A stretch of 64,000 nt of DNA. It comes from Rhina ancylostomus (Eukaryota). The stretch lies in NCBI GenBank assembly GCA_030265395.1, contig JARFYF010000119.1, positions 32,349,751-32,413,750 on the forward strand, in the 5' to 3' direction. The translations under genes and the position numbers were made by a program. The stretch's first letter is position 1. Each line of letters opens with the position of its first letter. The notes under the pieces are model-generated. The model was not told where the DNA came from. It saw only the letters and a list, made by a program, of their open reading frames with translations, and searched no databases. Positions 2,831 through 41,611 of this stretch are shown in pieces.

Positions 2831-4114
2831 TCAAACTTATGATTTTCAAAAGGGAGTTAGAGATACTCATTTAAAAAGAAAGCCTATCGGAAAAAGTAGG
2901 AGTGGACTAGCTATATTACTTATAGAACTGACATGGACTTGGGCTGAATAGTCTACTGTGTTACTGCTAAGACTAGCACCAATGTAAAAGGTACTACTGG
3001 ATCTGCCATAACATTGCACAAAGATAACAACTATTTCTCCTTTTCCCATCTTGTACCTTTTCTTCTCTAAATTATACTTTCCTCCTCTTCATCTAGTTTC
3101 CTACTTCAATGTCTATTTGCAAAAGTCCAATCTCATTACTTTCATCATAGTAATCCTGTAATTGTACTTTATTTTGCTTTTAAAATGTTTCTTTCCCTAT
3201 TTCCTAACATTTTTTTCCTTTGAACAAGAACCAGAAAATGCTTGTACTAAAGCCAAGATACAATCATGCCAAATTTCAAGAATAGAATAAATAGACAGAA
3301 CACCAAAAAACACATGATATTTAAACACAAGATGCAGTTTACAGCAAGCCTCTCAGGCTAATGTTTGTGTTTTGAGGAACTTTGACCTTCCAAATTGGAA
3401 AGTAGGCAAGCTGATCAAACTGTTTGAAACTGGGTTTGCAACCCTCAGATGGGTCACATGATGTTAAGAGAGAGATGCCAAAATAGGTCAAAGGGGATCC
3501 AATGAGTGCAGATAACTAGTAAGAGGGGGACCAATGGAGCCTGAGAGAGGGAGGTGGTGGCAAGAATATGGGAAATGGGGATCACTGGAAAGGTCCTGCT
3601 CCTGTCCTGGTTACCCTAAACCCACCCATGCTAGCAGCAGGTAACAGTAAAATATACATAAAATATCACTTTATGACTAACTTTTAAAGCTTAACCATCA
3701 TTTACTTGCACCTACAATTATAGTTAGCTAGCCATTACTGGATCTTATAGGATCTCTACTAGGTCACCTGGAAAGAGAACCTAATCAGGTATAGATGTCA
3801 AAGAACAAAATAAAGCTGGGATATAACCCTATTACCAGAATACCATAAGCAGACAAAGGAATTTCTTGATCATGGATTGATCAATAGATGGGATAAACAT
3901 TCAGATACAATAAGGCAAAAATACAAAGCATTTAAATTGCTGTTGTATGGCACAACACAAATTATCTAGCTACCTGAATAAAATTAAGAGAAATAGATAA
4001 CTTTAATGATTATAGAAAGAAAGATCCAGTTAACTCAAGAGACACCAACATTTCTGACTTTCTATGGAAGGATTTATTACAAGTTATCTTACCCTTAGCT
4101 TACAATATTCTATA

Positions 4115-4934: not shown

Positions 4935-7148
4935 CTCTTCCCAACATCATTATGGTAGTACTGGAAGGACTGCAGCTATTCAAAGAGAGAGCTCATCACT
5001 AACCACCCAAAGTAATTCAGGCATGGGCAAAAATGCAAGCAAATGGAGGGAAGGTGCTCCAATAACATGAACAAAGCTAAAAAATATTTCAAGTATCTTA
5101 GGAGGTTCTCACTTAGGACAAGTCCTACCTGGCAAAGCCTTAGTAACACCAGTAAAGGCAGTCCCTGGGTAACATAAGGATTTTGTTCTCACGAACTGTT
5201 TGTAAACTGATTTTTCCATTAATCAGAAACAAAATTTCAAATGGGGGTTGAATAATATTATTTAGCACCTTTTCTTATATGGTTGCAATGGTACAGAATC
5301 AGAACGTTCCACATCCAGTGGCTGGTTTGATAGCCTTAAGGTATGAATGCTGCATTGTTTGATAAAGTATTTTACAAATGTCAATAAGAGATCGCCTTTG
5401 TCAATTTCCAAAGCAAATCTCTTAAGCAGCCTCCAGCAACCTGGGGAGCCCCTGTAGTGCACTCTATGAAAGCAATAAGCAGCACAAATTTTGCAAAAGC
5501 AGGTCAACTGTATACCATGCAATTTAATAATAAGCATTTCTTTCTTATTATGCCAATATGCAAATTCACCTCACACTCAGATTTAAGGAGTGACCTAGAT
5601 AAGGTACAGATGGTTGAAAAATATGATTACAGATGGAGAAAAAAAAACTACTTTCTTCATTTGTGATAGAGAGGGTGGTGGAAGATTCCGAGATAAGGGT
5701 ACATAAGAACACAGATTCAGAAGTTAAGCCCTTGGCCCTATTCACTTGCTCTGCCATTCAATAAAAAAAACATGGTACATGCTGTGCCTTAAATCTACTT
5801 CAGACTTGATTTTCATTTCTTCCAATTACTGCGGTGTCCAAAAATCAACAACCTGGGCCTTGACTACATTCAGCTATGTATCCATAGCCCTCAGATGGAC
5901 AGAAACTCTACAAGCAATCTAGTAAAGAATAAAAGAGACAAGAGACTGCAGATGTTGGAAATCTAGAGCAACTCACAAAAAGCTGGAGCAGCTCAGCAGT
6001 TCAGGCAGATTCTATGGAGGGAAATAGCCAGATGTTGTTTTGGGTCTAATATCAGTAATAGGTCATTAAGAAGAATCAGGTCATCTCACAAATGATAAAG
6101 GAAACCAGTAAATCTCCCTTAAAAGTAGTGGAAGCTTGCTCAATTTAAAAACAATATTAAACAAGCGCTTTTTTATTAAATGAGATTAGTATGGAACAAA
6201 GGTAGATAAATTGAGCTGAGGTAGACTGGCTACATTCAAAGTGATTGGTGAAACAGACAAGTCACTGGACTATTCCTGTTTCTATGTTTAACTGATTTAC
6301 AGTGAAAACAAATACTCCATGTTTATTAGATAGCAATTTGGAATATTTGATAATTTCTCAGTATCATTTCCATTATAAATGAAAACTTTATTGAATAAAG
6401 ATGGTAGAATGCACAAATGAAAAACAGTAGGGACAGAGTATATTGGTCTAGTTCCCTCCCACCCTATTCAAGCTTGGATAACCTGTAAACAGTGTCAAGT
6501 CTTAATGCCTGTTTATTTTATCAAGGAAAATTAAATCATGGGTATAATTAAAATATTCACATTTTCCCCATTCCCAACAGAAAGCATGAAGAATTTGTAA
6601 GATTTAAATATTGCTTGCTCAACTTCAAAAGAATTTTATGCAAGTGAAAAACAAAATCAGACAACTGCATATGCTAGAAATCTAAAATAAAAACAGAAAA
6701 ATCTGTAAGAACTCAGCAGGCTAAGCTGAGTGTTTCTAGAAATTTGTTTTCAATTAAGCAAGCTGTTATTTCCCAATCTCAAGTTTACAGCAATTGTTTT
6801 ATGTTAAACACCTGAGTCAGTAGTTTGAAAGTTCAGGTCATAATCAACATAAGAGTGCATCACCTAGGATGGAGCTTTAGTGAGATTCTAAGGGAACACA
6901 GAACTATCAGAAATGCTCTCAGTTGGACATTATATCAAAGACCATCTATTTTCTCAAACAAAAAATCAAAACATGTTTGTTGGCCAGGGATAAACACTGG
7001 CCAAAACATACAAGGAATGCATTATTCAGCATTTTTTTTTACACAATCTGTTATATGAAAGAATGAAAGAAAAACACAGGAACATAAATCTTAAGATATC
7101 TAATACTTGTAACTATGAACGTGAAGACCTCAAACAATGTTTGCATAC

Positions 7149-13129: not shown

Positions 13130-13320
13130 AAGGGTGGCATAGTGGCACAGAGATGACTATGTGGGTTTCTCCAGGTGCTTCAGTTTTCTCCGTCGCCCCA
13201 AAGATACGAGTGTTGATAGGTTAAATTGCCCTTCACATGTTGTTGAATGAACACTAGGGGAGAATAATTGCAAAGGGTTCTTGGTCAGCTTGGTGGGCCA
13301 AAGGGCTTGTTTCCATGCTT
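13130..13320 (+). mobile_element. Internally deleted SINE
   Basis: gggtggcatagtggcacag head, gggtttctccaggtgcttcagttttctcc core, gggccaaagggcttgtttcc tail. Confidence 0.7.
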
Positions 13321-13368
13321 TTTTTTTAAAGCTCTAATAAACCCTACAAATTGAAGTGAAAGATTTAC

Positions 13369-13495
13369 CTTTTGCTCGGTGAGCAAGTCTGTGATTGTTT
13401 GTGACATTTCATCAAAACTCTGAGCCGTTTTGACCAAATTACGAAGAATTTGTATATGCTGATGTAATGGCTCAAAGTCACAAATTGTAGGAACC
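13369..13495 (-). CDS. RB1CC1: RB1CC1 coding exon 12 (127 nt)
   Basis: VPTICDFEPLHQHIQILRNLVKTAQSFDEMSQTITDLLTEQK; ttttcctgaaag / AAG|gtaaat. Confidence 0.96.
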
Positions 13496-14040
13496 CTTTC
13501 AGGAAAAAATCAGAAACAAAAATTAGCTCAACCAGAATGATTTTTCTCATATTTAAATCAAATAGAGCAGCTAAACTCTACAAAAATAAAACAGATCTTT
13601 GCATTTTTATTTAACAAATCATAGTCTTGACTCAAATGCCAACCCTGCTAAGAGGGCATTTCTGTGAAAGCAACTGGAAAATACTGAAAATAACATCAGA
13701 AGATGCAAAAAAATAGTATAATATAAAAAAGCTTCACCTGACCTGTTGACATATCAACATATTGCATAATACCTGCAATTTCTACATGGTGGTTCTCCAA
13801 AGTCAATTACTTTACAGGGGAAAAAAGGATGATCCTCCTTTCCACAGGAACAAAGACAATTTAAGATGCGGAATGAGTCAACCTACTTTCTTTTAAAAAA
13901 AAGCTACATCTAGTAACAACAAGGAGGAGCAAAAACAAAATGAGTTGCTAACCAGCTCACTTTTCAACTGATACATGGCTGTTGAACTAAAATAATACAA
14001 TTAAAAGTTCGAAGCTTTTTTTAAAAAAAAAGTTACTTAC

Positions 14041-14058
14041 CTTTGTAAACAGTTGTCA
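14041..14058 (-). other. RB1CC1: Candidate 18-nt in-frame microexon TGACAACTGTTTACAAAG
   Basis: Consensus donor AAG|gtaagt at 14040, weak acceptor tccctgaag, open in phase 2. Confidence 0.3.
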
Positions 14059-14506
14059 CTTCAGGGACCAAGATATCCTCAACATACCATGGTTAAGGTC
14101 AGCATAATGGCAATAGAAAATAAAAACAAAACTCTAAGACCTTCAGCCAGAACTGCACAACAATATTAGAGAGGTAAAGTGTGTCCCCTTGTGGTCATCT
14201 TAGTATTTTCAGCCAGAGAGGGTAATGTAACAGAAATTCCATCCCCCAATTGGCAGAAAAATTTGACAAGATTTAAGCAAGTGTTAACTGTTCAGACTGA
14301 TTATTTGAAATTTTAATCTAATTACATTTTGCAATGCAATACTATTGCAAAGTCAAAGTTTTAAGTGTATGAAACTGAAGGCACAAAATGTAAAACTCTA
14401 AAGTACAAAACAATAAAAAGATGGAAAATTTGGTATGTGGTTAACTTCATTTGAAGAATGAGAATTACGGCACCTCAAGGCGAGTAAATCTACCTTTCTT
14501 CATTTG

Positions 14507-15464
14507 TTATCCTCCACATACCACGAAAAACATTGCAAAATACTTATAGTAGAAAAAAAACTATTTATAATAAGTAGTTTGTGAAGTGGATCAGATACAT
14601 TGCCTGAATTTAATGGTATAGAAGATGCATAATCTCTTTTGAATGTAGGAATCTCTGAATATGGCCATTGCCTGCAATTGCTAAAATATTTCATCATTTC
14701 TACATGCTTGGGGTGAATGGCCATTCAGTTTTGCAGATGTTAGATGGTTACTATTCAGAAAGATAAGATTAGCTGTTATTTTTGGTCAGTTTTAAGCAAT
14801 TTCAAGAGGTTGCCAATAACAGGGAAGTTAATTTAGAATAAGACCCAATTTTCAACATGTTTTGATCTTCAAACTGGGACTTGGCTCAACTTGTCCCTGA
14901 GCATTGCATTAAATGACTCTTCTTTCACTCCAAGGCTAATAGCATCTTTCAGGATTTGAATTCATATGGAGAAATTAGTATTGTTTCAGGAAGTATAGGA
15001 AAACCAGTTTTTAAGCCATGCCAAATGGCAATTCAGATGAGCCAAATCTTCTACTCCTGTATTTTTTTTTGGAAGGGCTTGGCTGTACAAAATTTACTGA
15101 AAAAGATACATTTCAGAAACTTTCTGACCAAACATAAAAAGAGCCAATTACAAAAAAAATTCCAGCAGTCAAAAGATAACTTTGATGAATGCATATAGTA
15201 TGGATCCCATTTTTAATCCACTTTATTGACTCAAATATTCATCAGTAAAGCACCAAAGACATTATTTTTCCCTTCAAACAAAAACGAAGTATGATGTCTT
15301 GTTCATAGAAAGCATTTAAAAAAAAATCACAGAAGAGTAAACCACAGTTGACAGATTATATTGTAGAATATGAAAGGAAACTTGGTTGGTTCTGGCTGAA
15401 AAATGTCTTTAAAAGAACATTTGTCCCCATTATGCTGATTTTACCTGTGGTATGTGGAGGATAA
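14507..15464. repeat. Perfect 18-bp inverted repeat (14507-14524 / 15447-15464)
   Basis: ttatcctccacataccac and gtggtatgtggaggataa are exact reverse complements. Confidence 0.9.
15222..15444 (-). other. RB1CC1: Candidate stop-containing alternative exon (poison or alternative terminal); 3' end uncertain
   Basis: Acceptor ctatctctctttttcattatcctccacataccacag with an 88-nt AG-free zone; gives AG|G TAA; AATAAA at 15227-15222. Confidence 0.4.
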
Positions 15465-15546
15465 TGAAAAAGAGAGATAGTTCATCAAGTTTAAAAATTT
15501 TGTACCATTCCAAAATTTGTATTTGTATGAAGCACTTTGCACTTAC

Positions 15547-15555
15547 CTTTTCCTC
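15547..15555 (-). other. RB1CC1: Candidate 9-nt in-frame microexon GAGGAAAAG
   Basis: ttctaat branch motif at -19, aaacag acceptor, consensus AAG|gtaagt donor; frame-preserving in phase 2. Confidence 0.5.
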
Positions 15556-18500
15556 CTGTTTAAATACATCCCATTAGAAATTATGAAAGTCATGGAACAG
15601 ATTGCCTTTTAGCAACTTGACCAATGAAGTGATATTTTATCTTTCACACAGTGATAACTTGGGACTACTTGCTATTCCAATTTTAATTAGCCCTTGTAGC
15701 CTTTCCTTCCAACATGTCTACCCATCTTTAGGCAAGTTCCAAGATACCCACTGTTCCATTTTGACTGAACTTTGGGCACACACCAAGAGCAAAATCTATA
15801 ATTGAATATTAGCATCGATAAGGCTATTGTAAAGAATTAAAGGTAAAAGTATATGGAATTTACTTGGCACAAGAATGAGGAAATCTATTCTTGCAGTTTC
15901 TTCAACTGTTAAATCTTAAAGGGCAAACAAGAATTTAACAAAGCTATCTAACATAACTGAATATGAATTTCTATTGATCTGACATTATCCCTACATCAAA
16001 GATGAAAAGATATACAGAAAAGAACATCTTAAATGTCACTACTGGCAACAATTGCACTAATGATAGTACAAGTGGTAGCCTCAAACAAAACCAGTAAGTG
16101 TAAGGTGTTCATTTCTGTTTAAGTTATTTGAGATCATTTATCTGAAATTTCAGTTAGCAATTACTAGGTCAAGGGTTCCTTCAATTCCCTACTTCTATAC
16201 CTGAAATAAAAATGTTAACTAATGCAAAAGTATTAAGTGCATAAATAAGAACCACATCCATGATTCTTTCAACATGGGCCCAAGTCTACTTGTAAGGATC
16301 ACCCTTCTGAAATATGTCAACAACCTACCTGCTTTATTCTCATGGTTTAGATGAATTAAGGTTTTTACAGGAAGTTCAATATTATCTTTACAAGTTTTGC
16401 GGGTGAAGTTGGACGAGATAATCCCAGTCTTTAAGGAAACCACATCCTCAGGGCACGTAACCTGAAGTTACAAGAGTGCTTCCTTAATGCCTAGAGAAAT
16501 TGTGGATGGATATTTGTCTCATCAAGATTTCAGGAGAACTAGGAGTAAACTCCACATTTTGGTATCAACTATTCAAATCAGTCCTCATATTTTCACTGTG
16601 TTGACTAAATGCATCAACTCCAGCTATCAACATAATTTAGTTACCAAATTTCAAGTCAATCAGAGGTAGATGTTTAATAAAGTAGTGCACAGAAGGTAGC
16701 AAAAAAAAAACAAAGAAGAATAATGTGCAAATCTACAGCTTCCAAGATATTTAACTTTCAGGTAAAAAAAACTGAGGGCACTTCAAACAAGAGCTGATGT
16801 TTACAATAGAAGAAAACTGCACCTTCATGCCAAAAGACTTAACCAAATTATCTAGCTAAGAAAATAATCTAGTACTGAAGTGGTGCTGCACTGTCAAAGA
16901 TCTTGAAACTAACATAACGTAATTGAACAGAAAGGGATTCTTGCAAGGGAATGACCTTAACCTTTCCTCATTAAATGCCAACAACTGTTTGTGGCTTCTT
17001 GCCAAGCACAATAGTTACCATATTTATTATGGAGTACACAGAACAATACAGCACAAGCACAGGCCCTTCAGCCCACGACGTTGTGCTGAACAAAATAGAT
17101 CCTCACTACTACAAGTGTACCAGTCGTCAATGTTCAGGGTACGCAGTTTCTGCCAGCAGGTCCCAGTACACAGTCTTCCATTGGGAAACTGGCTCCCAGC
17201 ACATCAGCAAAGAGCAAAACAGCTTGCAATCTTCCCAACACTTGTGGCTAGCTATAGTAACAAGAATGCCATCAACACTGATCAACCTCACTGCCAGCTG
17301 TCAAACCTGTTGTTTAAAACTTCAGTCAGCTATCACTTTGTGTTTCAATAAATCATTGAAAGCACAAACTTCTAAGACAACTAAAACATTTAAGCTAATT
17401 TAAAATCAAATATCTTTCTCCTCTCAGCCAATGCTCACTATACTTGTGTCAGGATAACCTGGTTCAGGTTCAACGGGTGGATTTCCCAGCCAGACAGCAG
17501 AGAAATCTCAAAACANNNNNNNNNNCTATGACACTACAAGAAGAATCCAACGAAAAGCAATGCAGAAGTCCCGTGCACTATAACCTCATCTCAGGAATTG
17601 ACCACTAATAAGCATATTTGTTGATAGATCTGTCACTGAAATAATCTCAGAAATTACAGCATAGCACATGAGCTTCAGTCCTTGCTCTTCAACACGATGT
17701 AAAGCTAAGCAAGTGGTCCTTAACCTACATTAACTTTAAGGGAACTGTTCTCCATGTTCAATTCCTTCTCCAAACAGATGAAAAGATGCTTACTTAGTAT
17801 CTTGTTCATTTTCAATCCCAAGTAGCAGAGGAAAAATTAGAACAATATATCAATTTGATTAAATAAAAGGATGATAAAAATGCAAGCACAGATCAGATGT
17901 GTTGAATTATCCATTTGTGTTTAAATTCTATACAAAATGCTTCCACTGCACCAGGATCCAGTACAAAGGGAGATGTTTTATTACTACCACTACATTAAAC
18001 CAATCGTATAAAAGTTAGGTGTTTGCTTTCCTAGTTTTTGCCATAAAATATTTTACTAAATTTAATGCTAAGTGGTTTAACACACTATGTGAACTAATTT
18101 CTAGTAAAACATTGCATCAAGGCACTGCAATTTGAATCCCTCCAGAAATAATAAACGCATACAAAGGACAGCTCATTGAAGCAAGATTGCCATTAAGAAT
18201 ATTTGACATATAAATTTATATGCGCTAGTCTCATATTTAAAATTATATTTTTGTTTTCCTTTCAACTGTTAGATTCATCATGCTCCATGGATTGCTGTGA
18301 TTTATTCACCTTAAAACTTCTTGTAGCATAATGCTTCACATTCTAATAAACTTTTGCATGAAGCCTTGCTTTGTCCATGCAGCAGCAAACTTAAGTTATA
18401 AGAGATAATGGGACTAGAAGTTTAAATTTTCAACCATTTTTTATTGGGAGACATTGAAGAGTTTAAGTAGCAGTTAAACAAAATCAGAAGGTTTACCCAA

Positions 18501-19425
18501 GCAAAAGGAAGGAAATTTTCCCTATCATAAAATTCTTAATGGTTTTAGTTTGGCAAAAGATGCCTTTTTTTTAAAAAAACAAAAACTTATTTACTGAGCA
18601 ATGTATTTTTACATTGAGCATAGAGTGAAGATAGAACAAAAATTAATGTTTAAAACTGAATGCCAAAGAATAAATACCACTATTGAAGTTGTGGCATAAT
18701 CCTCACCCCCTAACTAATAATAGTTCATATATTTCAAAATTATGCTGTATGGTCAAAATGAAATCACTTCATAACCGCCTGCATCCAAATAAATCACAAT
18801 GCAGGCAAAACACTCCTCTCTCATCCTGGGGAGCAGGGTATCAGGGCACAGAGGCATGTCTAAAACCAGGACATTACTTCCTTGGTACTAGACAGGAAAT
18901 AGTCCAAATTGAAAGTTCAGATACTGTTATGTTCAAATACAAAACCTCACTGGAAGATTACTACATCGTTTTTCCTTTTTAAAAACAAAACTGGCATTTA
19001 AATTATATCCACTCTCAAAATACATATCAGCCTTAAGAACACAAGCATAACTTAAATACCCAAGGCTCAGGATACTTAAATAGGCCTGTGATATTTAGCA
19101 GATAATGCTTTGCGCTTTTTTGCTACAGACTAAAAGTCACATTTCAGTCAAGCCAAAAATGACCACATTCTTCATTGCCTTGAGTTACAAAAAATTTTTA
19201 ATAAAAAGAGGAAATTTCCATTTTTGGAAAACTATTAAGGTAATTTCAGATGATTCAAGCATCTTGAACACTATAAAAGTATAAAACTAGTGCATCAATC
19301 AACAGAGTACTGATACTTAAATAATATATTTTGTTTCCAGTTTTATACAAAGGATCAACATCCTAGGTCTTCATATTTGGATGGTTTTGCAACAAGCTTG
19401 TGTGGCACTTAACTGTGTAAGTTAC

Positions 19426-19529
19426 CTGAGAAATGGCTGAACTTCTGAAGGACAACAGGACTGCAGAAACTGCAAATCAGCTAAGGATACATCAGGAAGT
19501 TCAAAGTCAAACTTCCGAGGCTTGTGTGT
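19426..19529 (-). CDS. RB1CC1: RB1CC1 coding exon 11 (104 nt), contains KPRK and LQFL motifs
   Basis: THKPRKFDFELPDVSLADLQFLQSCCPSEVQPFL(R); ttgttgcag / AG|gtaact; ends in phase 2. Confidence 0.96.
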
Positions 19530-20530
19530 CTGCAACAATTAAAAGTTAATAATTTAAATTAATATTTTAATGCTGTTAACAAATCATGACCTAATGTGAC
19601 AGTTTCTCACATATGTAGTTGTTTAAGTGGAAGAAATGAATATCTTAATTAAGTCCTAAAATGGCTGTAATTATATTTTTGTAAATTACACTTTTCAGAA
19701 GGCAAATAACTTGTAATTTCTAGTATGTGATAAAAGACCAAAAGCAAAGCTGCCATTGAAATAGCAACATTTAAAGACTTACTAGTGAGGGGCTCTCATA
19801 CTTTGACTTTTTAAATAATTGTAAGCATGCTCCCCGCAAGTGAAGAGATGACTATCCTCCACTAACACTGGTAATCAGAGGCTGGTCCTCATGGCCTGCA
19901 AGATGTATGCAGAAAGATCTTCCTTTGTTAGGGAAAAGGCACAGTGGCCATGGGGAATCAAGTATCACTTGCTCACAACGCAAACAAGGATGATTCTGGA
20001 ATTAAGACCAGTGCCAGCAGTTGCAAGAATGAACACCATTACAAATGTTCAATCCCACAACAAATTAACACCTCAAAAAGTGATACTTTAGTAACAGTAG
20101 CTTAGGAAGAAAATATAGCCCAAGGAGGGCATAGTAGGTATAATAAGCACTGCTAGAGTATAGCAGGGCTGAGAATTCAAAGTAATATTTAATTTAAAAG
20201 AAAAACACAGGTTATCATTTTCACAGGGTCCATGACAAGTGAAGAAACTGCTTCTCAACTCTCAACCAAATTGATAAGCTCAAATGCTCATTTAGGACCT
20301 ACATAACTCATTGGTTATACATGACAGAATGAATAACTAAACATACATTATTTAAAAAAACTCATCTTGCAAGTTAAACAGATGAGGGAAAAAACCTTAA
20401 TATTCCTTCAAATTAGAACATTAAGAGGGTATTGAAAACGTTACAAATACAAAAATCATATAATCACTGAAATTCTGCAAATGTTAGCAAATGTAATATT
20501 TTAATTATTCAAACAAAAATGTATACGTAC

Positions 20531-39254: not shown

Positions 39255-40295
39255 AGTTTAAATTTATTGTCATAGGCATATATACACAGGGTATAAATGC
39301 CATGAAAATCAGCAGTTTGCAGCAGCACAGTACATTATATAAACTTAAATTAATATATTATACATAACACAATAAACAAAACAATGACATTAGTGCCAGT
39401 TGAGAAAAATGTCATCCAAGCTAATATTAGTTTTAAGTTGGTTCCAAGAACCTGATGGCAGTGGTGAAGCAGCTGTTGCGAGCATGCTATGTTGGCACCA
39501 GAAGAGTGGTGACACTTGCGGGATGCCCCAGTACATTCTCAGTATCGCAAAAAGATGCATTTCATTGTGTTTTGATATACATGTGACTAATAAATAAATT
39601 CCTTGTTGAACCTCAAGNNNNNNNNNNNNNNNNNNNNNNNNNNNNNNNNNNNNNNNNNNNNNNNNNNNNNNNNNNNNNNNNNNNNNNNNNNNNNNNNNNN
39701 NNNNNNNNNNNNNNNNNGTGTTTTGATATACATGTGACTAATAAATAAATTCCTTGTTGAACCTCAAGATGTTTGTCTTCTGGCTCCTGTACCTCCTGCC
39801 TGATGACAGCAATGAGAAGAAGGCATGGCCCGGATGGTGGGAGTCCTTAATGATGGATGTCACCTTCCTGAAACATCATCTCTTGTAGATGCCCTTGATG
39901 GTGGGGAGAGTTTTACCCATGATAGAACTGGCTGAGTCCACTTCTCTCTGTAGCCCCTGGCTCCTTGCTTTCCTGTGCATTGGACTTCCCATACCAGGCT
40001 GTGATGCAACCAGTCAGAATGCTTTCCACTATACATCTGCAAAAGGTTGTTAGTCTTTGATAACATGCTGAATCTCCTTAAACACTTAAGTAGAGACACT
40101 AGCGCACCTTCTCTATGGGTGTACCTATATGCTGGACCCAGGATAGATCCTCCGAGATGTGGACAGCGAGGAATTTGAACCTGCTCACCTTTCCACCACA
40201 GAATCTTCAAATGAGGACTGGTGCTAGTTCATCAACTTCCCTTTCCTAAAGTCACAATCAGTTCCTTGGTTTAGTTGACATTGAATGCAAAGTTG
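39255..40295 (-). mobile_element. Rex1/Babar-like LINE 3' portion with a small nested insert
   Basis: Minus strand gives degenerate NNNFAFNV..TKELIV.FRKG and LRRFSMLSKT, homologous to the plus-strand copy at 41255-41611. Confidence 0.7.
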
Positions 40296-40299
40296 TTGT

Positions 40300-41611
40300 T
40301 ATGACATTAACACTTTACATGCCATTACTTCCTACAAGGCAAAACCCAACAGCATAAATAACAGTAATGCTTCATTCCCCAGTAAGTTCAATGCCTTTTA
40401 TGCATGCTTTGAAAAGGAGAACAACATTACACCTATGCAAATCCCCACAGCATCAGGCAACCCTGTGATCGGTGTTTCTGAGGACGACATCAAAGCATCC
40501 TTTGAGAGGGGGGATCCCTCGCAAGGCATCAGGCCCCGACAGTATACCTGCCAAGATACTGAAACTCTGTACTGACCAACTGGTTGGAGTGTTCAAGGAC
40601 ATCTTCAACCTCTCACCGCTGAAGCAGGTGAGAACCTCCAACTGCAAAAGGGGCATCAATCAACCGGTGCCCAAGAACAGAGCAGGGTGAGCTGCCTCAA
40701 TGACCATCACCTGGTAGCACTCACATCTATTGTGATAAAGTGCTTTGAGAGGTTGGTTATGGCTAGAATTAACTCCTGCCTGAGCAAAGACCTGGACCCG
40801 CTGCAATTTGCCTACTGCCACAACAGGTCTACAGCAGATGCAATCTCATTGGCTCTCCACTCCGCTTTGAAACACCTAGACAACAGCAAAACGTCAGGTG
40901 GCTATTATCGATTACAGCTCGGTGTTCAACACCATCATCCACTCATTACTAATCAACAAGCTCCAAAACCTGGGCCTTTGTACCTCCCTCTGCAACTGGA
41001 TCCTCAACTTACTTTTCGGAGACCAGTCAGTGCGGATCAGTAGTAACGTCTCTTCCTTGCTAACAAAGAATGCAGGCACATCTCAAGGATGTGTGCTTAG
41101 CCCACTGCTCTACTCTCTCTGCATTTATTATTGTGTGGCTAGGTACAGCTCGAATTCCATCTATAAATTCACCAATGACATCACTGTTGTTGGCAGAATC
41201 TCAGATGGCGATGAGGTAGTGTACAGGAGTGAGAGAGATTGGCTGGATGAGTGGTGTTGCAATGGCAACCTCACACTCAACATCAGCAAGACTAAAGGAT
41301 TTGATTGTGGACTTCAGGAAGGAGAGGTTGGGAAAACACAAACCAGTATTCATTGAGGGGTCAGCGGTGGCAAGGGTGAACACCTTCAAGTTCCTGGGTG
41401 TCAACATCTCAGAAGATCTGAGCTACAAGTTATAAAAATAAATAGTGCAAAAGAGGAATAAAAATGCAACACATTGATGCAATCATGAAGGCAGCACACC
41501 AGCAGCTCTACTTCATTTGGAGTTTGAGGAGATTTGGCATGTCACCAAAGACTCTTGCAAATTTCTACAGATGTAAAATGGAGACCATTCTGACTGGTTG
41601 CATCACTGCCT
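40300..41611 (+). mobile_element. Rex1/Babar-like LINE reverse transcriptase pseudogene
   Basis: Overlapping ORFs: [53 protein letters not shown]...[18 protein letters not shown]...[15 protein letters not shown]...[15 protein letters not shown]...FKFLGVNISEDLS; frameshifted. Confidence 0.9.

Follow-up and report, generated by a model that had tools for sequence, protein, structure and literature searches.

The window, a 64,000-nucleotide stretch of a Rhina ancylostomus contig, carries the ray RB1CC1/FIP200 gene on its minus strand. The closest matches of one exon in a protein search were ray proteins (Pristis, 93%; Mobula, 92%), and a search of genome contigs for an orthologous locus found none. 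Fitting the exon borders to the protein P0001 gives 11 coding exons, amounting to 1787 nt, up to position 19426. The 11th (minus strand, 19426..19529) ends ...EVQPFLR in phase 2 with the donor CAG|GTAACT, and the true next exon (minus strand, 13369..13495) begins VPTICDFEPL.... The phase 2 intron between 19426 and 13495 is 5930 nt long (~5.9 kb) and hosts the sequence CAG|GTAAAA (minus strand, 15439..15447), which resembles either an acceptor followed by an immediate stop or a donor matching 7/9 consensus positions.

GTAAAA comes directly after the CAG (15447-15445), and the preceding AG ends at 15535, leaving an 88-nt AG-free zone (minus strand, 15445..15534 with the CAG included). An AATAAA with U-rich sequence downstream of it lies at 15222..15227 on the same strand. 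The sequence-only reading had drawn attention to these three signals, all of which are present, and had deduced proteins of 596 or 599 residues by arithmetic that proves right. Joined to the 1787 nt of the 11 exons, the acceptor reads AG|G TAA and gives 596 aa, and a 9-nt candidate microexon adds three residues to give 599 aa (junction translation, with the spliced microexon-to-15444 product read from the sequence). A retained intron also reads AG|G TAA, with the identical R-stop and 596 aa.

The site was ranked among the 1120 intronic YAGs of positions 9100-51000. An AG-free zone of at least 88 nt precedes 10 of them, and an equal or higher pyrimidine content at -4..-40 is found at 23; CAG|GTAAAA alone combines both and ranks first on the joint measure, with thresholds taken post hoc from the site itself. 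Over -4..-23, U makes up a fraction of 0.30, less than at any of the 12 true acceptors (0.40-0.70). The long pyrimidine tract previously described is indeed pyrimidine-rich and AG-free, but it is U-poor and, as shown below, also an arm of an inverted repeat. Of the 1120 YAGs, 202 (18%) have an AATAAA no more than 230 nt away; among the seven AATAAA of the intron, the one at 15227-15222 is followed by the sequence richest in U (0.46; next 0.43). Among the 16 listed YAG|GT[AG]A sites, the AG|GT at 15444 has the best upstream tract. An acceptor, a poly(A) signal and a downstream U/GU element follow one another with no donor between them: splice-site strength, expressed as plain consensus counts and U1 duplex energies, revealed no good donor within 350 nt downstream of 15444, the best of 19 GT sites matching 6/9 consensus positions. 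Used as an acceptor, 15444 could for this reason open only a last exon, neither a cassette nor an RS-exon, and the earlier suggestion of a poison cassette, which needs such a donor, finds no support over that distance.

The N-terminal domain of FIP200 is described as an organizing hub (PMC7337493). Within the core structure of ULK1C, the dimerization domain of FIP200 comprises residues 496-599, with nothing resolved past 599 (PMC12440827), and the chain in PDB 8soi is 600 aa long. Since the ordered dimer ends where the stop at 596-599 falls, a decoy protein would be plausible on structural grounds, provided that it is made, and the predicted 596/599-aa product could fold and bind ATG13/ULK1.

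Two short exons can be proposed from the sequence nearby, the 9-nt in-frame microexon (minus strand, 15547..15555) and a 37-nt stop-containing exon (minus strand, 14041..14077), each with the strong donor AAG|GTAAGT, that of the latter at 14040. No other AAGGTAAGT donor occurs in 9050-51000; the two match the consensus at 9/9 positions and flank CAG|GTAAAA. The 37-nt candidate has an alternative form, an 18-nt in-frame exon starting at 14058, and the GAG and AAG acceptors of the candidate short exons have weak tracts. As a donor, CAG|GTAAAA would lengthen the microexon to 111 nt (15555-15445), the stop after 599 aa being unchanged; its calculated U1 pairing is -8.3, versus -8.0 and -6.8 for the neighbouring true donors. 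Further donor-like sites in the intron lie at 18309 and 16328 (8/9 consensus each). A U12-like donor motif, GTATCCTT, occurs in the upstream exon at ~19490 and a U12-like branch motif, CCTTAAC, at 14098-14092; a U12-type reading was dropped because the exonic GTATCCTT motif is not kept in the bird-like (L002) or teleost-like (L003) ortholog.

Overlooked in the earlier reading is that the tract and the CAG belong to an inverted repeat. A shared arm (minus strand, 15427..15485), made up of the pyrimidine tract, CAG|GTAAAA and 12 more nucleotides, is the reverse complement of two segments on the same strand, so that what looks like a long pyrimidine tract is at once complementary to purine-rich sequence lying 900 nt farther downstream. 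Partner A (minus strand, 14485..14543) contains an 18-nt perfect core (14524-14507) and forms a predicted duplex of -47.8 kcal/mol. Partner B (minus strand, 14045..14114) has a 37-nt core (14110-14074) that is 84% complementary, with a predicted duplex of -48.1 kcal/mol; it includes the CCTTAAC motif, spans both CTGACCTTAAC, which resembles a branch point, and the AG at 14079-14078, and covers the acceptor of the 37-nt candidate exon. The two pairings, of about -48 kcal/mol each, are mutually exclusive. Partner A also has a local competitor (minus strand, 14430..14462), with which it can form a hairpin (14530-14425) of -33.3 kcal/mol. Within partner A, 14511-14494 resembles an 18-nt in-frame exon with a GAG acceptor and a weak donor, AAG|GTAGAT; as a GAG acceptor stands at the equivalent motif position in A and B, the two may be duplicated exon-like units.

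Partition-function calculations predict that in partial transcripts the shared arm pairs with partner A (0.96-0.99), and that in the full stretch it pairs with partner B (0.81) while A is held in its own hairpin (0.68). Both predicted states cover the tract adjoining the AG. In the predicted B state the first two letters of the CAG are unpaired, and the +5 and +6 adenosines of CAG|GUAAAA stand opposite cytosines.

In a scan of 9.2-30 kb, A and B accounted for the top 4 of 560 windows for the shared arm. The score of B (44) was reached by 0/200 shuffles and that of A by 3/200, and the 18-nt perfect repeat appeared in 1/500. Natural 5.9-kb blocks (nine, two of them overlapping) reached inverted-repeat scores of 39, 42 and 88, as against 44 here, and of four such natural cases checked, three proved to be repeats recurring in the window. 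The strongest inverted repeat among the scanned blocks lies at 39896-41611, a retroelement-like region with reverse-transcriptase fragments and inverted copies. An energy scan with 60-nt windows found one equally stable duplex in 1/6 shuffles and a value of -42.6 in the bird-like intron. The B core pairs more strongly when read as antisense (-50.5, against -41.7 for the sense strand) and therefore gives no sign of selection for sense-strand pairing.

The 1.57-kb unit at 14030-15600 had a single genome match, a lower bound because the DNA search skips very common words. Three of at least 10 genome matches of a 15-nt core fall in the FIP200 intron (control, 5), as do two of at least three matches of a second core. 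A transposon or MITE with terminal inverted repeats was rejected, since by these lower-bound counts the unit is not multicopy. Rfam returned five matches in 13300-19600, all under the gathering score and none at the elements described here. Elsewhere in the intron (minus strand, 16170..16195), a 16-nt core at 16186-16171 is 94% complementary to 13498-13483, which holds the acceptor and the start of the true next exon; this pairing (-26 kcal/mol) is better on the sense strand and may be due to chance. In the bird-like L002, intronic 3846-3868 likewise matches 5969-5991, just before the same acceptor, in an A/T-rich pairing.

Use of the site was sought in transcripts and proteins. Two RNA-like contig sets from a relative, X1 and X2, each contain one contig that joins 13495 straight to the upstream exon. 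The junctions to the upstream exon were read from loose contig ends, because the alignments of the four runs were limited to 13335-16300; no run reached 14341-14950 or 15430-15788 (the CAG, microexon and partner A), gaps that speak neither for nor against use, and the run X7 gave no alignment. Apart from short chance pieces, of which two came from other contigs and fell on 15444-15222, X1 and X2 had no contig on the candidate exons. Both sets stem from one study, their RNA status is a guess, and contigs drop rare isoforms and show no ends; what they demonstrate is consequently limited to the dominance of the canonical form in that material.

Among proteins, 382 were fetched and 327 could be scored, the other 55 being fragments, genomic exon calls or variant motifs; 0/327 carry an insert at the canonical junction, where the spacing is invariant in all 327. 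No isoform ending at the junction was present among the 28 shorter matches or the cluster members listed, and the sole protein with PFLR at its end, 91 aa long, is a genomic exon call. Cichlid and rockfish proteins of 625-627 aa were considered as N-terminal isoforms and rejected as exon-14-like fragments. The annotated chondrichthyan FIP200 isoforms P0121-P0163 differ near the C-terminus, outside the window, where two residues are inserted after LDLK and 16 residues are skipped near residue 1465.

Comparison with DNA of a close relative (X6) gave 28 substitutions in 1273 covered intronic nucleotides, the coverage being taken from the gaps listed and excluding partner A, the CAG and the greater part of the shared arm. 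The segment 14024-14340 has 1 substitution in 317 nt, versus 27 in 956 elsewhere (Fisher 0.003 post hoc, 0.07 after scan correction); in its core of partner B plus donor (14033-14114) there are none in 82 nt, which is not significant (p 0.15). The proposed terminal exon (15222-15429) has 7 substitutions in 208 nt vs 4.1 expected, none of them listed in the AATAAA. In this one comparison it diverges at or above background and displays no constraint.

The orthologous introns L002 and L003 share only the exons with the ray gene; the arm, its partners and the candidate exons were not found there. Of 14 element-by-intron tests, one gave p 0.005, partner A against the bird-like intron, without a convincing partner stem, and the rest gave p 0.18 or above. 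At 2400-2510 of L003 there is a ttaacag, a short purine-rich stretch, AAG|GTAAAT and, ~77 nt on, CAG|GTAAGA. The layout is like that of the ray microexon and second donor, but as a counterpart it was rejected, since shuffles were not beaten (p 0.34).

The reading that best accommodates these data, to which we give a probability of about 0.45, is that CAG|GTAAAA is a silent decoy, used seldom if at all, whose tract the predicted RNA stems would mask. Partner A, once transcribed, is predicted to pair first with the shared arm; in the complete intron, partner B together with the local hairpin of A is predicted to replace that pairing. U2AF and U1 would have little access to the masked site, and the normal 19426>13495 junction would dominate and give full-length FIP200. 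Presumably the arms arose through local inverted duplication, which would explain much of the pyrimidine-rich, AG-free appearance. Because the acceptor look-alike lies within the predicted stems, it is likely kept silent and would not yield a shortened protein. In favor of this interpretation are the canonical junction as the only one in X1 and X2, the absence of inserts from the scorable proteins, a U content below that of true acceptors, the single-copy unit with its two strong predicted duplexes, the divergence of the terminal-exon stretch and the lack of a counterpart in two distant introns. Against it stand the first rank of the site among the YAGs, the U-rich AATAAA context, the flanking AAGGTAAGT donors, the low divergence of 14024-14340, the weakness of the RNA evidence and the unpaired C and A of the CAG in the predicted B state. 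The masking is itself a prediction, and a neutral origin of a four-part, two-state arrangement needs several duplications.

An N-terminal-only FIP200, as the sequence-only reading had proposed, would result from a regulated alternative last exon, with splicing to 15444 and cleavage before partner A is made. The acceptor and AATAAA are transcribed ~700-900 nt before A, a lead that such a mechanism would exploit, the stems otherwise closing to leave full-length mRNA. The site ranks first among the acceptor-like YAGs, and the U-rich sequence past the AATAAA and the lack of a donor within 350 nt are as expected of a last exon; the tract is covered by both predicted stems, and the stop meets the end of the ordered dimer at residue 599 (PMC12440827; the PDB 8soi chain is of nearly the same length). 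What survives of the proposal is thus the set of signals and the position of the stop. Its use does not emerge: X1 and X2 offer two chance pieces on 15444-15222 and otherwise the canonical junction, no annotated isoform among those inspected ends here, the substitutions in the terminal exon exceed expectation, and an AATAAA is equally near at 18% of intronic YAGs. Such a last exon is unlikely.

Comparably unlikely is a competing-stem switch of the ATE1 or BRD2/BRD3 type that serves the other short exons, its output being an NMD-tuned FIP200 dosage. The arm would alternate between A and B, with B concealing the branch point and AG of the 37-nt exon that ends at the 14040 donor, and CAG|GTAAAA would act as a donor that turns the microexon into the 111-nt stop exon. 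Two mutually exclusive duplexes of equal energy with an arm-freeing hairpin, 9/9 donors on both sides of the unit, a U1 pairing about equal to that of neighbouring true donors and low divergence around B and its donor are consistent with such a switch. Opposed to it are the lack of inclusion in the X1 and X2 contigs and the 327 scorable proteins, the weak tracts of the GAG and AAG acceptors, the non-significance of the unsubstituted 14033-14114, the failure to find the elements in two distant orthologous introns, and the energy scan, in which one of six shuffles equalled one duplex and the bird-like intron came close.

It is rather improbable that the site is chance intronic sequence, ignored for lack of exon definition, with stems that do not form or are irrelevant in vivo. 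The scores of natural blocks and the stronger antisense pairing of B argue for this view, but the high natural scores come largely from repeats recurring in the window, whereas the FIP200 unit is single-copy, and shuffles reached neither the score of B nor, save once in 500, the 18-nt perfect repeat.

We give similarly little weight to a four-element, transcription-timed RNA switch that would choose between full-length FIP200 and the 596/599-aa product, the acceptor and poly(A) signal being exposed only until partner A is transcribed. ADARs favour A-C mismatches, and in such a switch A-to-I editing at +5/+6 would strengthen the CAG|GUAAAA donor, with U1 pairing going from -8.3 to -11.0. One case of an A-C mismatch left unedited is described (PMC3479170), and editing at this site may be regarded as a lead only.

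A recursive splice site, also raised by the sequence-only reading, in which the donor at 19426 would be joined to 15444 and the regenerated CAG|GTAAAA then spliced on to 13495 to leave the mature mRNA unmarked, has in common with vertebrate recursive sites an AG|GT after the best tract of its class but is very improbable, because the intron measures 5.9 kb whereas those described exceed 10 kb and need a downstream RS-exon (PMC8758631), for which no donor lies within 350 nt, and the site is predicted to be masked.

Vertebrate introns contain cryptic (decoy) splice sites and pseudo-exons. The FIP200 site resembles them in that its acceptor and donors come close to consensus while their use was not detected; unlike ordinary decoys, it coincides with a long two-partner inverted repeat. 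Closer in design are the competing intronic RNA structures of human ATE1 (PMC7797038), where one element likewise has two competing partners and the order of transcription permits kinetic control. As described there, the ATE1 elements are conserved, validated by compensatory mutations and govern two real coding exons, whereas the FIP200 arms are known from sequence and prediction and overlap splice signals. Poison exons of BRD2 and BRD3 are controlled by paired conserved complementary regions (PMC10789245). The likeness is an intronic complementary pair beside candidate stop-containing cryptic exons, but the BRD2/BRD3 exons are described as expressed and conserved, whereas the FIP200 candidates were neither observed in use nor present in two distant orthologous introns.

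For RB1CC1 itself, PMC9198270 mentions a conserved hairpin credited to Shepard and Hertel 2008, which resembles the present case in gene and in tying RNA structure to splicing. As the bird-like and teleost-like introns lack the ray element, a mammal-conserved hairpin is unlikely to be the same. Among the papers listed in the literature search, none pointed to an RB1CC1 poison-exon, microexon or cryptic-exon event in this intron; genome-wide tables of complementary regions or cryptic exons could list RB1CC1.

CAG|GTAAAA is therefore probably a new example of a cryptic splice site masked by structure, its function unproven. If it is used, the product would be a naturally occurring FIP200 limited to the N-terminal part, retaining the scaffold for ATG13/ULK1 without the coiled coil and Claw, and ULK assembly could be uncoupled from cargo, with transcription speed in control. 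If, as in the preferred reading, it is silent, it would be a neat but ordinary case of a splice-site decoy hidden within an intronic duplex. The FIP200 intron then offers a caution, in that a pyrimidine tract may be half of an inverted repeat.
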